DNA of 64,000 nucleotides from Escherichia coli (GCF_009931435.1 NZ_CP043414.1); one strand, 5' to 3'; shown: positions 5,107 through 19,150, counted from the stretch's first letter. Made by a program: numbers and translations. The notes: a model not told the origin generated them from the sequence alone.

Positions 5107-5883
5107 ATGTCCGAAACAAAAAACGAACTTGAAGACCTGCTGGAAAAAGCAGCAACCGAACCGGCGCACCGCCCGGCCTTTTTCCGTACTCTACTGGAAT
5201 CCACTGTCTGGGTACCAGGTACGGCGGCGCAGGGCGAGGCAGTGGCTGAAGATAGCGCGCTTGATTTACAGCACTGGGAAAAAGAAGATGGCACCAGCGT
5301 TATTCCTTTTTTTACCTCGTTAGAAGCACTTCAACAGGCGGTTGAAGACGAACAGGCATTTGTCGTAATGCCCGTTCGCACATTGTTTGAGATGACCCTT
5401 GGCGAAACGCTCTTCCTTAATGCCAAACTGCCAACCGGTAAAGAATTTATGCCGCGTGAAATCAGTTTGCTGATTGGTGAAGAAGGGAATCCGCTGAGCA
5501 GTCAGGAAGTACTGGAAGGCGGTGAATCGCTGATATTATCGGAGGTCGCAGAGCCGCCAGCACAAATGATTGATTCACTTACCACCTTATTTAAAACCAT
5601 TAAGCCGGTGAAGCGTGCTTTTATTTGTTCAATTAAAGAGAACGAAGAGGCACAGCCTAATTTACTTATTGGCATTGAAGCTGATGGCGATATCGAAGAA
5701 ATTATTCAGGCGGCGGGAAGTGTAGCGACCGATACATTACCTGGTGATGAACCAATCGATATTTGCCAGGTGAAAAAAGGGGAAAAAGGAATTAGCCACT
5801 TTATTACCGAACATATTGCGCCATTCTATGAACGTCGCTGGGGTGGATTCCTGCGTGATTTTAAACAAAATCGGATAATTTAA
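5107..5883 (+). CDS. sseB: SseB (enhanced serine sensitivity protein B)
   Basis: ORF 5098-5883 (GTG at 5098); ATG at 5107 gives MSETKNELEDLLEKA... (258 aa); position between pepB and sseA. Confidence 0.85.
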   Translation: MSETKNELEDLLEKAATEPAHRPAFFRTLLESTVWVPGTAAQGEAVAEDSALDLQHWEKEDGTSVIPFFTSLEALQQAVEDEQAFVVMPVRTLFEMTLGETLFLNAKLPTGKEFMPREISLLIGEEGNPLSSQEVLEGGESLILSEVAEPPAQMIDSLTTLFKTIKPVKRAFICSIKENEEAQPNLLIGIEADGDIEEIIQAAGSVATDTLPGDEPIDICQVKKGEKGISHFITEHIAPFYERRWGGFLRDFKQNRII

Positions 5884-5887
5884 AATA

Positions 5888-5912
5888 TGCCGCCCAAAGG
5901 GCGGCATTCGGG
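5888..5912 (+). terminator. Possible sseB terminator hairpin (gccgcccaaagggcggc), weak T-tract
   Basis: Perfect GC-rich stem 5 nt after sseB stop; downstream T-run is poor. Confidence 0.4.
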
Positions 5913-5914
5913 CT

Positions 5915-6345
5915 TACTTGCTGTTCTGAAGGTTGTTAACCATCAGTAAATTGTTGCCGGAGGGACTCCGGTTATTATTTACCTCGGTTAACAGCGCACC
6001 AGAAACAATAAGTACGATACAGAAGTACCGTATCTTCATTGTGCGGTCCATGCGAAGACCGCATCACGACAGCACCACTGGCGATATTGCCGCGATAGCA
6101 AGCGCTGTGGGGTGCCTGCATTTACGGTCATGGAACATCCTTTCCTAAAGCCAGCGCCCGTTTGCGAGACGGCGAAAAGGGCCGTCACGAATAATACTCT
6201 CATATTTGAATAATTACTCTATTTATTATCTTGACTTGGCCAGGCATAAAAGAGAGTATTTCAACACTGTGGGGTGCCTGCGTTGCTCCGGCAACACAAG
6301 TCAACCTGCTGGAAAGGCCGCGAACCAGACCAGCAATAAAAAACC
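5915..6345. ncRNA. ryfA: ryfA small-RNA locus (approximate bounds, strand not resolved)
   Basis: Non-coding ~0.45 kb gap between sseB and sseA where I recall ryfA lying in E. coli; bounded by hairpins at 5888-5912 and 6347-6372; exact ends not determinable from sequence alone. Confidence 0.3.
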
Positions 6346-6346
6346 G

Positions 6347-6372
6347 CCAAATTCGGCGGTTTTTTATTGCCT
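6347..6372. terminator. Bidirectional rho-independent terminator (aaaaaaccgccaaattcggcggttttttatt)
   Basis: GC stem flanked by A-run and T-run, 10 nt downstream of the sseA stop on the minus strand. Confidence 0.65.
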
Positions 6373-6381
6373 GTAAAAAGC

Positions 6382-7227
6382 TTATTTCAATGGCTCAACC
6401 GGTAAATCTGCCCGTGCGCCCCATTCACTCCATGCGCCGTCGTACAGTTTCACGTTTGGCACATCCAGCGTCGCGAGTGCCAACAAAACCACGGCTGCCG
6501 TTACACCAGAACCGCAGCTGACGATAATTGGTTTGTCGTAGCTGACACCGCGACCAAAAAATATCGCATCCAGTTCATCGGTCGTTTTTAGTTCGCCTTC
6601 ACGGACCAGTTCCGTCCACGGAACGTTCAATGCACCGGGAATATGTCCGCGACGTAAACCTGGGCGAGGTTCATCAACTTCTGCGTTAAAACGTGTAGCC
6701 GGGCGGGCATCAATAATTTGCGCCGTATTTTCATGGCTTGCCAATAATACATCGGTTACTTTCACCACGGCTTCAGGATTAAACGCGGCGTTAAACTCTC
6801 CTTCCGGCAGCTCTACTGCGCCTTCTTCTAATAGCAGATCATCACGCTGCCAGCCTGCAAGTCCACCACCCAGAATCGACACTTTCTCTACACCAAAGGT
6901 GCGCAGCATCCACCATGCGCGTGGGGCTGAGAAAAGATTACCTTCGTCATAGACAATCAGGTGCTTATCCTGGTTAACGCCTAACTCACGCATCGCCACG
7001 GCGAACGTTTCCGGGCGCGGCAGCATGTGCGGAAGCGGGGAAGTGTGATCAGAAAGCGCTTCGATATCGAAAAACACTGCGCCGGGAATATGTCCATTCA
7101 GATACTCCTGGGCAACGTTACGATCTTCCTGTCCAGGCGGTGCCATGCGGGCATCGATAATCTGAATTTCCGGGTCATCAATATGTTCGGCGAGCCAGTC
7201 GGCTCCTACAAACCATGTCGTGGACAT
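6382..7227 (-). CDS. sseA: 3-mercaptopyruvate sulfurtransferase (tandem rhodanese)
   Basis: ORF 6382-7239; internal ATG gives MSTTWFVGADW... (281 aa); rhodanese active-site loop CGSGVTA. Confidence 0.9.
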   Translation of the reverse strand: MSTTWFVGADWLAEHIDDPEIQIIDARMAPPGQEDRNVAQEYLNGHIPGAVFFDIEALSDHTSPLPHMLPRPETFAVAMRELGVNQDKHLIVYDEGNLFSAPRAWWMLRTFGVEKVSILGGGLAGWQRDDLLLEEGAVELPEGEFNAAFNPEAVVKVTDVLLASHENTAQIIDARPATRFNAEVDEPRPGLRRGHIPGALNVPWTELVREGELKTTDELDAIFFGRGVSYDKPIIVSCGSGVTAAVVLLALATLDVPNVKLYDGAWSEWGARADLPVEPLK

Positions 7228-7432: not shown

Positions 7433-10400
7433 ATGAAAAAGTTACGCGTAGCCGCCTGCATGCTAATGCTGGCGCTGGCAGGGTGCGACAACGACAACAA
7501 CGATAACGCGCCAACAGCGGTGAAAAAAGATGCACCTTCTGAAGTTACTAAAGCGGCATCTTCAGAAAACGCGAGTTCAGCAAAACTCTCTGCACCGGAG
7601 CGACAAAAACTGGCACAACAGAGTGCCGGTAAGGCGCTGACATTGCTGGATCTCTCTGAAGTCCAACTCGATGGCGCAGCCACGCTGGTGCTGACCTTCT
7701 CTATCCCTCTCGACCCGGATCAGGATTTCTCGCGCGTTATTCACGTCGTTGATAAAAAAAGCGGCAAAGTGGATGGGGCCTGGGAGCTGTCAGATAATCT
7801 TAAAGAGCTGCGTTTACGCCACCTCGAGCCGAAACGTGATTTGATCGTTACTATTGGCAAGGAGGTCAAGGCACTCAACAACGCAACCTTCAGTAAAGAT
7901 TACGAAAAAACTATAACTACCCGCGATATCCAGCCCAGCGTCGGTTTTGCCAGCCGTGGTTCGCTGCTGCCTGGAAAAGTCATTGAAGGGCTGCCGGTAA
8001 TGGCGCTCAATGTTAACAATGTCGATGTTAACTTCTTCCGTGTTAAGCCAGAATCTCTGCCAGCATTTATTAGCCAATGGGAATACCGAAATTCGCTGGC
8101 GAACTGGCAGTCAGACAAACTGCTGCAAATGGCGGATCTGGTTTATACCGGACGTTTTGATCTCAATCCTGCGCGTAACACCCGTGAAAAATTATTGCTG
8201 CCGCTGGGTGATATCAAACCGCTTCAGCAGGCGGGTGTGTATCTGGCTGTGATGAATCAGGCTGGACGTTACGATTACAGTAATCCCGCGACGCTGTTTA
8301 CATTAAGTGATATCGGCGTATCGGCCCACCGTTATCACAATCGTCTGGATATCTTTACCCAAAGCCTGGAAAACGGCGCGGCCCAGCAAGGAGTTGAAGT
8401 CTCATTATTAAATGAGAAAGGGCAGACTCTGACTCAGGCAACCAGTGATGCCCAGGGGCATGTGCAGCTGGAAAATGATAAAAACGCGGCATTACTGTTG
8501 GCGCGTAAAGACGGTCAGACAACGCTACTCGATTTAAAACTTCCGGCGCTGGACTTAGCAGAATTTAACATTGCTGGCGCGCCAGGCTATAACAAACAGT
8601 TTTTCATGTTTGGCCCGCGCGATCTTTATCGCCCGGGTGAAACAGTCATCCTTAATGGTTTATTGCGTGATGCAGACGGTAAAGCGTTGCCCGATCAACC
8701 CATCAAGCTGGACGTAATTAAACCCGACGGGCAGGTACTCAGGAGCGTCGTTAGTCAGCCGGAGAATGGCCTCTATCACTTTACGTGGCCACTCGATAGT
8801 AATGCGGCCACCGGCATGTGGCATATCCGAGCCAATACGGGCGATAACCAGTATCGGATGTGGGATTTCCACGTCGAAGATTTTATGCCAGAGCGTATGG
8901 CGCTGAATCTGACCGGTGAGAAAACCCCGCTAACGCCGAAAGATGAAGTGAAATTCTCCGTGGTGGGTTACTACCTGTACGGGGCGCCTGCTAATGGTAA
9001 TACTTTGCAAGGGCAACTTTTCCTGCGCCCACTGCGTGAAGCTGTGTCAGCCTTACCTGGTTTCGAATTCGGCGATATAGCTGCTGAAAACCTTTCGCGC
9101 ACGCTGGATGAAGTTCAGTTGACGCTGGATGATAAAGGGCGCGGCGAAGTTTCTACAGAAAGCCAGTGGAAGGAAACGCATTCCCCATTACAGGTTATTT
9201 TCCAGGGCAGTTTGCTGGAGTCTGGCGGTCGCCCGGTGACGCGCCGTGCTGAGCAGGCTATCTGGCCTGCCGATGCATTGCCGGGGATCCGTCCGCAATT
9301 CGCCTCGAAATCGGTTTACGATTATCGCACTGACAGTACGGTAAAACAGCCCATTGTTGATGAAGGCAGTAACGCCGCTTTCGACATCGTTTATAGCGAT
9401 GCACAGGGCGTCAAAAAAGCTGTGTCTGGCTTACAAGTGCGCCTGATTCGCGAACGCCGCGATTACTACTGGAACTGGTCAGAAGATGAAGGCTGGCAGT
9501 CACAGTTTGATCAAAAAGATCTGATCGAAAATGAACAAACACTGGATCTTCAGGCTGATGAAACCGGTAAAGTCAGTTTCCCGGTAGAGTGGGGCGCTTA
9601 TCGTCTGGAAGTCAAAGCGCCGAATGAAGCGGTCAGTAGTGTGCGTTTCTGGGCTGGCTATAGCTGGCAGGACAATAGCGACGGTAGCGGTGCTGTGCGA
9701 CCAGACCGTGTCACGCTGAAACTGGATAAAGCCAGTTATCGCCCTGGTGATACCATTAAGTTGCACATTGCCGCACCAACGGCGGGTAAAGGCTATGCGA
9801 TGGTCGAGTCCAGTGAAGGGCCGCTGTGGTGGCAGGAGATTGATGTTCCGGCACAAGGGCTGGATCTGACGATTCCGGTCGATAAAACCTGGAATCGTCA
9901 TGATCTTTATTTAAGTACGCTGGTGGTACGTCCTGGCGATAAATCTCGCTCCGCGACGCCAAAACGCGCAGTTGGCGTGTTGCATTTGCCGCTTGGCGAT
10001 GAAAACCGTCGTCTCGATCTGGCGCTGGAAACTCCAGCGAAAATACGCCCCAATCAGCCATTAACCGTGAAAATTAAAGCCAGCAATAAAAATGGTGAGA
10101 TGCCAAAACAGGTGAATGTGCTGGTGTCTGCGGTTGATAGCGGTGTGTTGAATATTACTGATTATGTCACGCCAGATCCGTGGCAGGCATTCTTTGGTCA
10201 GAAACGCTATGGCGCAGATATTTACGATATTTACGGTCAGGTCATTGAAGGTCAGGGGCGTCTGGCAGCTCTGCGTTTTGGTGGCGATGGTGATGAACTG
10301 AAACGCGGTGGTAAACCGCCAGTAAATCACGTCAATATTGTTGCGCAACAGGCGCTACCGGTAACACTCAACGAACAGGGCGAAGGCACGGTTACATTGC

Positions 10401-17921: not shown

Positions 17922-19040
17922 ATGCATAACCAGGCTCCAATTCAACGTAGAAAATCAACACGTATTTACGTTGGGAATGTGCCGATTGGCGATGGTGCCC
18001 CCATCGCCGTACAGTCCATGACCAATACGCGTACGACAGACGTCGAAGCTACGGTCAATCAAATTAAGGCGCTGGAACGTGTTGGCGCTGATATCGTCCG
18101 TGTCTCCGTACCGACGATGGACGCGGCAGAAGCGTTCAAGCTCATCAAACAACAGGTTAACGTGCCGCTGGTGGCTGACATCCACTTCGACTATCGCATT
18201 GCGCTGAAAGTAGCGGAATACGGCGTCGATTGTCTGCGTATTAACCCTGGCAATATCGGCAATGAAGAACGCATCCGCATGGTGGTTGACTGTGCGCGCG
18301 ATAAAAACATTCCGATCCGTATTGGCGTTAACGCTGGATCGCTGGAAAAAGATCTGCAAGAAAAGTATGGCGAACCGACGCCGCAGGCGTTGCTGGAATC
18401 TGCCATGCGTCATGTTGATCATCTCGATCGCCTGAACTTCGATCAGTTCAAAGTCAGCGTGAAAGCGTCTGACGTCTTCCTCGCTGTTGAGTCTTATCGT
18501 TTGCTGGCAAAACAGATCGATCAACCGCTGCATCTTGGGATCACCGAAGCGGGTGGCGCACGTAGTGGGGCAGTAAAATCTGCCATTGGTTTAGGCCTGC
18601 TGCTGTCTGAAGGCATCGGCGACACGCTGCGCGTATCGCTGGCGGCCGATCCGGTCGAAGAGATCAAAGTCGGTTTCGATATTTTGAAATCGCTGCGTAT
18701 CCGTTCGCGCGGGATCAACTTCATCGCCTGCCCGACCTGTTCGCGTCAGGAGTTTGACGTTATCGGTACGGTTAACGCCCTGGAGCAACGCCTGGAAGAT
18801 ATCATCACCCCGATGGACGTTTCGATTATCGGCTGCGTGGTGAATGGACCAGGTGAGGCGCTGGTTTCTACACTCGGCGTCACCGGCGGCAACAAGAAAA
18901 GCGGCCTCTATGAAGATGGCGTGCGCAAAGACCGTCTGGACAACAACGATATGATCGACCAGCTGGAAGCGCGCATTCGTGCGAAAGCCAGCCAACTGGA
19001 TGAAGCGCGTCGAATTGACGTTCAGCAGGTTGAAAAATAA
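17922..19040 (+). CDS. ispG: 4-hydroxy-3-methylbut-2-enyl diphosphate synthase IspG (GcpE)
   Basis: 372-aa [31 protein letters not shown]...; conserved CPTCSR cysteine region. Confidence 0.95.
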
Positions 19041-19150
19041 TAACGTGATGGGAAGCGCCTCGCTTCCCGTGTATGATTGAACCCGCATGGCTCCCGAAAT
19101 ATTGAGGGGCGCGTTGAGGGTTCATTTTTATATTCAGAAAGAGAATAAAC

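Follow-up and report, generated by a model that had tools for sequence, protein, structure and literature searches.

The gap between sseB and sseA in a 64,000-nt stretch of Escherichia coli DNA (NZ_CP043414.1, assembly GCF_009931435.1; hereafter the window, with positions counted from its first letter) is almost certainly the chromosomal timPR/ryfA locus in its E. coli form, i.e., a gene for a small TimP-type peptide and, divergent from it, a gene for the small RNA (sRNA) TimR. That the two work as a type I toxin-antitoxin pair in this strain is likely by analogy with Salmonella, and the overall reading, in which the identity of the locus is blended with its toxin-antitoxin operation, is highly probable. 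The locus is already known: historically called ryfA/ryfB, it was described as ryfA in 2001, as RyfA1/RyfB1 in 2017 and as timPR between 2020 and 2026, and its coding sequence (CDS) is named in current RefSeq. With the locus published and the CDS annotated, the finding is minor as a discovery; the sole contribution here is a precise map of the locus on the window and the place of the open reading frame (ORF) that a first reading, made from the sequence alone (the sequence-only reading), had missed.

The end of sseB (plus strand) lies at 5883 and that of sseA (minus strand) at 6382, leaving the gap of about 0.5 kb described by the sequence-only reading, precisely 498 nt at 5884-6381. That reading had also placed ryfA here, and rightly so: on the minus strand, an Rfam scan of the whole window matched all 296 positions of the RF00126 (ryfA) model (1-296) to 6185..5882, with 308.1 bits (E = 9e-85) where the gathering threshold is 80. 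Similarity to annotated E. coli ryfA, which it had proposed to look for, is seen both in this match and in an identical RefSeq timP: E. coli 2020CK-00188 shares 901 nt with the window at 100% identity, and between its sseB and sseA, RefSeq annotates a CDS of the same position under the name "small toxic inner membrane protein TimP". The CDS is likewise annotated in the RefSeq records of K-12-like, LF82 and O157:H7 E. coli, and the timP ORF is found in 5422 of the 5426 complete E. coli genomes. The sequence-only reading noted that the Salmonella ryfA transcript is reported to encode a small toxic membrane peptide but could not pick out a corresponding ORF by eye; the six-frame scan that it suggested lists a minus-strand ORF at 5914..6051, and the peptide read from the second ATG of this ORF (6039) matches the NCBIfam profile NF040796 (toxic_TimP) with 83.1 bits against a curated cut-off of 45 bits, its residues 1-39 lying on profile positions 1-39 of 40. 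By each sequence-level criterion that was examined, the locus belongs to ryfA (Rfam), to TimP (NCBIfam) and to timPR, and its functional membership would follow from homology to Salmonella.

The timP mRNA is numbered here as n = 6184 minus the window coordinate, its +1 being set at 6183 because the sequence from there, GGCCCTTTTCGCCGTC, corresponds to the start of the Salmonella +1 oligos, GGCCCTTTCCGCCGTC; comparisons with the Salmonella timP sequence, this one included, rest on fragments from the mBio oligo table. The -10 hexamer of timP and its spacing match the Salmonella oligo EHO-1348 (...GGTATTATCTTTCCC followed by GGCCC), and the box reads TAYTAT in all aligned loci. The predicted fold of the transcript has a z-score of -5.74 versus shuffles. 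At its 3' end, the hairpin that the sequence-only reading had placed at 5888-5912 is real, and its true span lies close by (5887-5907); it has a 9-bp stem with 7 GC pairs, a predicted energy of about -17 kcal/mol on either strand and a T-rich tail (ATTTTAAATT) on the minus strand only, and it corresponds to the 3' end of the RF00126 model.

As in Salmonella, the timP ORF starts at +145. The peptide opens with a positively charged N-terminus (MKIR) followed by a hydrophobic segment that resembles a Sec signal, with a mean Kyte-Doolittle value of 1.95 for residues 5-19 versus -1.03 for residues 20-41. It was compared across four E. coli alleles from annotated genomes and six loci (E. coli, E. 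whittamii, Escherichia sp. E1V33 and three Citrobacter) recovered from species-representative genomes by a pattern scan for stem-loop 4 (SL4) of the 5' untranslated region (5'UTR) plus the start codon (GCGGTCNNNGCANNGACCGCACNANNAAG), a pattern that missed Salmonella because the latter reads GACCGCAAC. In these 10 loci the ORF is intact and in frame, and residues 1-17 are near-invariant; the Citrobacter loci carry indels of 6 and 3 nt and a wholly divergent C-terminus. Between Escherichia and Citrobacter, in-frame indels leave the reading frame, its start and the hydrophobic core in place, and the C-terminal half may be under weak constraint, as judged from sequence. A protein search with TimP returned entries only from Escherichia and Shigella. 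The TimP variant of the window (Y5, P26, M33) is rare, with 15 of the 5426 complete genomes at least 99% identical over the ORF, most E. coli carrying C5, L26 and V33; its best cluster representative in a large protein collection is 95% identical.

The divergent antisense sRNA gene named by the sequence-only reading is also present, but the two transcripts do not overlap: the gene starts are 83 bp apart and the complementarity amounts to 18 nt. The ttgact hexamer pointed out by that reading at 6231-6236 is exactly placed and is taken as the -35 box of the timR promoter because the boxes and their spacing are as in Salmonella and are kept across alleles. Specifically, the Salmonella arm of the timR deletion oligo EHO-1349 carries TTGACA-17-GAGTAT immediately upstream of the TimR +1, and TTGAC[AT]-17-GA[GCT]TAT is kept in Escherichia and Citrobacter despite wholly different spacer sequence. 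Downstream of it, TimR begins with CTACGGTGTGCCTGCGTTGC at its +1 in the Salmonella oligo and the window reads CTGTGGGGTGCCTGCGTTGC from 6267; the Salmonella TimR (97 nt, rebuilt from two T7-template oligos) is identical to window positions 6267-6370 in 83 of 105 columns (79%). An alignment to Salmonella timPR, another check that had been suggested at the outset, thus succeeds for both +1 positions, both promoters and TimR itself against the published oligo sequences.

In its predicted fold (z = -3.9), TimR leaves the first 7 nt of its pairing stretch unpaired and continues with two hairpins, the first of them small, before the terminator. The GC core of the latter (-18.7 / -18.5 kcal/mol) lies at 6343-6360; runs of A and T flank it on either side, and by lengthening the stem they are the probable reason why the terminator scan did not call it. 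The sequence-only reading had rightly seen a hairpin here and placed it at 6347-6372, a shifted interval that catches only the last part of the 5' arm, then covers the loop and 3' arm, and runs 4 nt past the stem-loop. No family in Rfam 15 covers TimR, and the matches of sraL, AgrB, the rimP leader and RNAI to this region are sub-threshold and driven by the terminator; that of SraL RNA (RF01408) reaches 32.2 bits against a threshold of 39, with the terminator carrying the alignment and the central hairpin deleted. IS128 RNA (RF00125) was likewise rejected, with 36.2 bits against 80 over model positions 132-209 only, i.e., the last 78 positions. TimR is unannotated in the RefSeq feature tables of all records inspected; since standard pipelines do not annotate it, half of the published system is invisible to them.

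The link between the two RNAs is an exactly repeated 15-nt word, CTGTGGGGTGCCTGC, with one plus-strand copy at 6105-6119 and another at 6267-6281; no shared word longer than 11 nt arose in 500 shuffles. As timP is encoded on the minus strand, a plus-strand RNA starting at 6267 is complementary to timP +62..+79, and the resulting duplex between TimR 6267-6284 and timP 6122..6105 comprises 18 contiguous pairs, the 15-nt repeat being extended at the end by three pairs, two A-U and one G-U. This is the length of the TimR-timP pairing reported in Salmonella. RNAduplex applied to the full-length RNAs was uninformative (-72 kcal/mol versus -64.5 +/- 4.9 for shuffles), and the duplex was judged instead by a search for contiguous pairing and by pair counts. 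Covariation was assessed on nine fairly close Escherichia and Citrobacter sequences, in an alignment that joins timP +1..+150 to a TimR segment, the latter being anchored on the hairpin after the pairing site rather than on the pairing itself; the timP 5'UTR aligns without gaps across the comparison loci. Over these nine loci, a 20-bp TimR-timP helix is 95% paired and shows compensatory double changes at 8 of its 20 positions, a covariation score reached by none of 500 shuffles, and sliding the partner by 1-3 columns lowers pairing to 25-55%. From allele to allele, changes at the SL2 site go with changes at the TimR 5' end. In two Escherichia genomes, timP carries G68A with no change in TimR, which introduces one internal A-C mismatch into the window-type duplex.

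The elements of the translation switch described for the Salmonella 5'UTR are conserved as well. The Rfam stem-loops SL1-SL4 are 98% paired; the 7 bp of SL4, in whose 3' flank the Salmonella papers place the Shine-Dalgarno (SD) sequence, are invariant in the nine sequences and present in the minimum free energy fold. The pseudoknot between sites 1 and 3 has 7 bp and is paired in 63 of 63 cells, its changes being one-sided only (G-U to A-U, C-G to U-G), with no double covariation at this phylogenetic depth. Similarly, the 6 bp between sites 2 and 4 are 100% paired and show one-sided changes only. Eleven of the 12 nucleotides named in the Salmonella work are identical here (G33, C34, C57, C58, G59, G81, G102, C103, G125, G131 and C138), and the twelfth, G76, falls in a variable loop. 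Two further observations concern this region. The upstream AUG of the 5'UTR (+53..+55, 6129-6131 minus) reads AUG in the window; K-12 has GUG there, and both LF82 and E. whittamii have CGC. The corresponding AUG of Salmonella proved dispensable when tested, and the variation is in keeping with a non-functional codon. Additionally, the Rfam ryfA consensus pairs +56..+58 (6126-6128) with +184..+186 (5998-6000) in codons 14-15 on the minus strand, a pairing that is possible in the window (A-U, C-G, C-G) and that includes C57 and C58, site 2 bases of the 2026 switch model; the papers examined make no mention of it. The positions of all elements are collected in Table 1.

Table 1. Elements of the timPR/ryfA locus in window coordinates, with the alleles of the pairing site; numbers with a plus sign refer to the timP mRNA.
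Element	Position	Strand	Details
timP mRNA (formerly sRNA RyfA)	6183..5882	minus	~302 nt; 144-nt 5'UTR, ORF, 3'UTR, terminator
timP -10 box	6191..6196	minus	TATTAT; 7 nt upstream of +1
timP CDS	5914..6039	minus	+145..+270; 41 amino acids (aa) + stop, MKIRYFCIVLIVSGALLTEVNNNRSPSGNNLLMVNNLQNSK
Terminator hairpin for timP (-) and sseB (+)	5887..5907	both	bidirectional; ATGCCGCCC-AAA-GGGCGGCAT
Site 1, pseudoknot 5' half	6150..6156	minus	+28..+34; upper SL1
Site 2	6124..6129	minus	+55..+60; GACCGU, pairs with site 4 to open SL4
TimR-binding site in timP 5'UTR	6105..6122	minus	+62..+79; SL2 5' arm and loop, includes the "variable region" CACCC
Site 3, pseudoknot 3' half	6076..6082	minus	+102..+108; SL3 loop
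SL4, SD-sequestering hairpin	6043..6062	minus	+122..+141; 7 bp
Site 4 (SL4 5' arm)	6057-6062	minus	+122..+127
Putative SD	6047..6050	minus	UGGA; 7 nt upstream of AUG, SL4 3' arm; assigned by position
timR promoter	6231..6259	plus	-35 TTGACT (6231-6236), 17-nt spacer, -10 GAGTAT (6254-6259); Salmonella likeness
TimR antitoxin sRNA	6267..6368	plus	~100 nt; start inferred within 6265-6267; pairing stretch 6267-6284
Intrinsic terminator for TimR (+) and sseA (-)	6335..6368	both	bidirectional; 14-bp stem
SL2 pairing site CACCCCACAG			window and O157
SL2 pairing site CGCGUCUCAG			LF82 and E. whittamii
SL2 pairing site UGUUUCACAG			K-12
SL2 pairing sites CACACCUCAG and CACACCGUAG			Citrobacter

By homology with Salmonella, in which alone the mechanism has an experimental basis (PMC7667032, PMC11228461, PMC13000454), TimP translation and toxicity, presumed for E. 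coli and Shigella alike, repression by TimR and the structural switch would all operate in this strain. There, TimP resides in the inner membrane and causes membrane leakage and growth inhibition on overexpression, and its repression by TimR was shown by compensatory mutants and cell-free translation. In the window, the minus-strand TATTAT promoter would drive timP as a constitutive primary transcript whose 5'UTR, with its four stem-loops, hides the SD sequence in SL4. Formation of the pseudoknot between sites 1 and 3, together with pairing of site 2 to the SL4 5' arm, would free the SD sequence and yield a translatable conformer. From the opposite strand, the TTGACT-17-GAGTAT promoter would drive TimR, the first 18 nt of which could bind SL2 of the active conformer, thereby destabilizing the pseudoknot and blocking initiation. 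When TimR is depleted, TimP would be made and inserted into the inner membrane by its uncleaved signal-like segment, leading to leakage.

Several points weigh against this reading. No good -35 box is recognizable for timP, and a generic consensus promoter scan called neither the timP nor the timR promoter, the latter being missed because its -10 box fits the consensus at 3 of 6 positions. Within the switch, sites 1 and 2, whose pairing is proposed to lock the inactive conformation in Salmonella, form U31-G59, G32-C58 and G33-C57 and then a C34-A56 mismatch in the window and five other sequences, K-12 and Citrobacter carrying G56. Additionally, non-synonymous codon differences exceed synonymous ones in timP among Escherichia alleles (7 versus 0 against O157), and because of this excess the constraint at the protein level looks weak outside the hydrophobic core; such an excess would be expected if RNA structure constrains the silent sites, because the region of the start codon forms a hairpin with codons 8-11. 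Lastly, a 2026 paper on avian pathogenic E. coli (APEC) states that TimP translation and toxicity in E. coli "remains to be determined", and reports from uropathogenic E. coli (UPEC) and Shigella dysenteriae, discussed below, point in the same direction.

It is possible, if not favored, that the ~300-nt transcript acts mainly as the trans-acting regulatory RNA RyfA, perhaps as a sponge or partner of TimR, and that the ORF is irrelevant or silent in E. coli. RyfA would then control stress resistance, fimbriae, motility and virulence, a role that is compatible with one in a toxin-antitoxin pair. In UPEC CFT073, ryfA alleles with a destroyed ORF complement all phenotypes of a ΔryfA mutant (PMC8205139), and in S. 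dysenteriae, RyfA1, whose variable region is CACCC as in the window, lowers ompC and causes no growth defect when overproduced 100-fold (PMC5333039). In APEC, ΔryfA is attenuated and both ΔtimR and the double mutant are wild-type-like (PMC13188913), a pattern suggesting that free TimR causes the phenotypes and that the interplay takes place at the RNA level. In line with a regulatory RNA, a further paper reports binding of ProQ to RyfA, and the excess of non-synonymous changes noted above also fits. Against it, Escherichia and Citrobacter share the frame, the +145 start and the hydrophobic core in spite of in-frame indels; a conserved SD sequence in SL4, the pseudoknot and sites 2 and 4 would be pointless for a non-coding RNA; and the literature examined defines no direct RyfA mRNA target. 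A dual-function RNA is thus plausible and an exclusively non-coding RyfA less so.

The choice of start codon within timP was also weighed. It is improbable that the peptide begins at the upstream in-frame AUG at 6051, which would yield the 45-aa form (MDRTMKIRYF...) assumed for UPEC CFT073. This AUG opens the first-ATG ORF (5914-6051), and the UPEC paper describes a 45-aa ORF at +135..+270; yet it lies within the loop and 3' arm of SL4 with no SD sequence upstream of it, the NCBIfam match begins at residue 5 of the longer form, the RefSeq start is 6039, and the start codon mutated in Salmonella (+145) corresponds to 6039. Moreover, Salmonella has AAGG where the upstream AUGG stands, as read in the SL4 oligo. 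Still more improbable is a decaying remnant, present in sequence but unregulated or unexpressed in this strain: the mismatch between sites 1 and 2 would fit it, and natural loss does occur (C. amalonaticus AUH_CA_2023_1 lacks both promoters), but in the window both promoters, both terminators, the ORF, the switch sites and a perfect 18-bp duplex are intact, and the same module is present in 578 complete E. coli genomes.

Finally, the chance that the plus-strand ORFs at 5933-6148 (71 aa), 6206-6376 and 6231-6521 are protein-coding is negligible: they are open for 56-96 codons, and the 71-aa frame is open in several Escherichia alleles, but none is annotated in the four RefSeq records, the 71-aa and 56-aa products have no NCBIfam match (the scan covered these two, not the 96-aa ORF), and the 71-aa ORF has a TTG start, is fully antisense to timP and carries stop codons in LF82 and E. 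whittamii as well as in both Citrobacter loci. The sequence-only reading, which had listed the 71-aa ORF and doubted that it was the membrane peptide, was correct on both counts; this ORF is an antisense shadow of timP.

The closest known system is timP/TimR of Salmonella enterica (Andresen, 2020, PMC7667032; Eleftheraki, 2024 and 2026, PMC11228461, PMC13000454), which likewise consists of divergent genes beside sseB. The two 5'UTRs are colinear with no indels from +1 through AUG 53-55, C57, C58, G59, G102, C103 and SL4 (122-141) to the ORF at +145, and the 18-nt pairing of the TimR 5' end at SL2 and the architecture of the timR promoter are shared. The peptides also correspond at the N-terminus, which reads MKIRYFCIVLIVSGALL in the window and MKVRCFCVVLLVSGTLC in Salmonella. 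The differences lie in the peptide length, 41 aa against 38 aa in Salmonella, and in the unrelated C-terminal halves (EVNNNRSPSGNN... versus HADR...GNSVPVTLNVQSR); in the pairing site, which is CACCCCACAG here and CACACCGUAG there; in the A at position 56, which weakens the pairing of sites 1 and 2 here; and in the surroundings, the window having no STM2534-like gene between the locus and sseA.

In S. dysenteriae, the same locus carries RyfA1/RyfB1 with the same five-nucleotide variable region, CACCC, and a divergent RyfB of ~100 nt whose 16-17 nt of complementarity overlap that region; RyfB1 specifically lowers RyfA1 (Fris, 2017, PMC5333039). There are two tandem ryfA/ryfB units in that species and one in the window, and RyfA was taken as non-coding in that work. 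The K-12 region of E. coli has the same flanks and terminators and a timP mRNA that is 90-95% identical, but it carries the UGUUU allele of the pairing site and an extra 319 bp with the IS128 model (RF00125) and a second timR copy.

In the type I systems tisB/istR-1, shoB/ohsC and zorO/orzO, a small hydrophobic inner-membrane toxin is accompanied by a divergent, nearby antitoxin gene, the antitoxin pairs with the 5'UTR of the toxin mRNA over ~18-20 nt well upstream of the ribosome-binding site, and the mRNA needs nucleolytic processing to become translatable. The layout of timPR resembles this type and not that of overlapping antisense systems; the likeness is one of layout, with no known sequence similarity. 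Unlike these mRNAs, the primary transcript of timP is reported to switch conformation without processing. An overlapping cis-antisense arrangement of the hok/sok kind was rejected, as the timP and TimR transcripts are disjoint and complementary over only 18 nt.

The pairing site exists in at least three alleles in E. coli (CACCC, CGCGU and UGUUU) and in more in Citrobacter. The segment that reaches from the SL2 site of timP to the 5' end of TimR (window 6100-6300), both promoters included, differs between E. coli strains as a cassette, and the timP ORF and the TimR 3' half that flank it are near-identical everywhere. At a query cover of at least 80%, the window-type module is found in the above 578 of 5426 complete genomes, O157:H7 included; the LF82-type cassette is also carried by E. 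whittamii, a distribution suggestive of exchange and not of stepwise change. This polymorphism is not new, because the variable region and its overlap with the RyfB pairing were described in 2017 (PMC5333039), and only a selective interpretation of it would be. Tentatively, and with considerable doubt, it could be proposed that the cassettes are kept by selection for orthogonal toxin-antitoxin pairs and that the weakened lock between sites 1 and 2 shifts the mRNA of the window to an active, TimR-dependent state.

With several non-identical pairing-site alleles in E. coli, and with K-12 atypical in its extra timR, results may not carry over between strains. The allele in the window, with its perfect 18-bp duplex and single timR copy, would be a clean test case for production and toxicity of the 41-aa peptide in E. 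coli.

Some minor observations on rearrangements can be added. The extra segment of the K-12 type sits between the timR terminator and sseA (2180-2500 in the K-12-like record examined, L002) and also holds a remnant of the timP 5' end with its promoter; the full IS128 model was found only in this insertion (L002 2118-2326, minus strand, 261 bits). The distal timR copy of K-12 is the better match to K-12 timP, with 20 contiguous pairs of which 3 are G-U; the proximal copy is of the LF82 type and pairs at 18 of 20 positions, 3 of them G-U, the other 2 being mismatches. In C. amalonaticus AUH_CA_2023_1 (L007, about 8040-8070), a deletion of ~162 bp ends in both copies of the pairing-site repeat and fuses the TimR reverse complement to timP from +66 onward, so that the promoters and +1..+65 are lost and the ORF is intact; this looks like recombination between the repeats inherent in the timPR design. 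Elsewhere in the window, the sroE sRNA family (RF00371) has a full-length match at 19040-19131 on the plus strand, with 110 bits against a threshold of 51.

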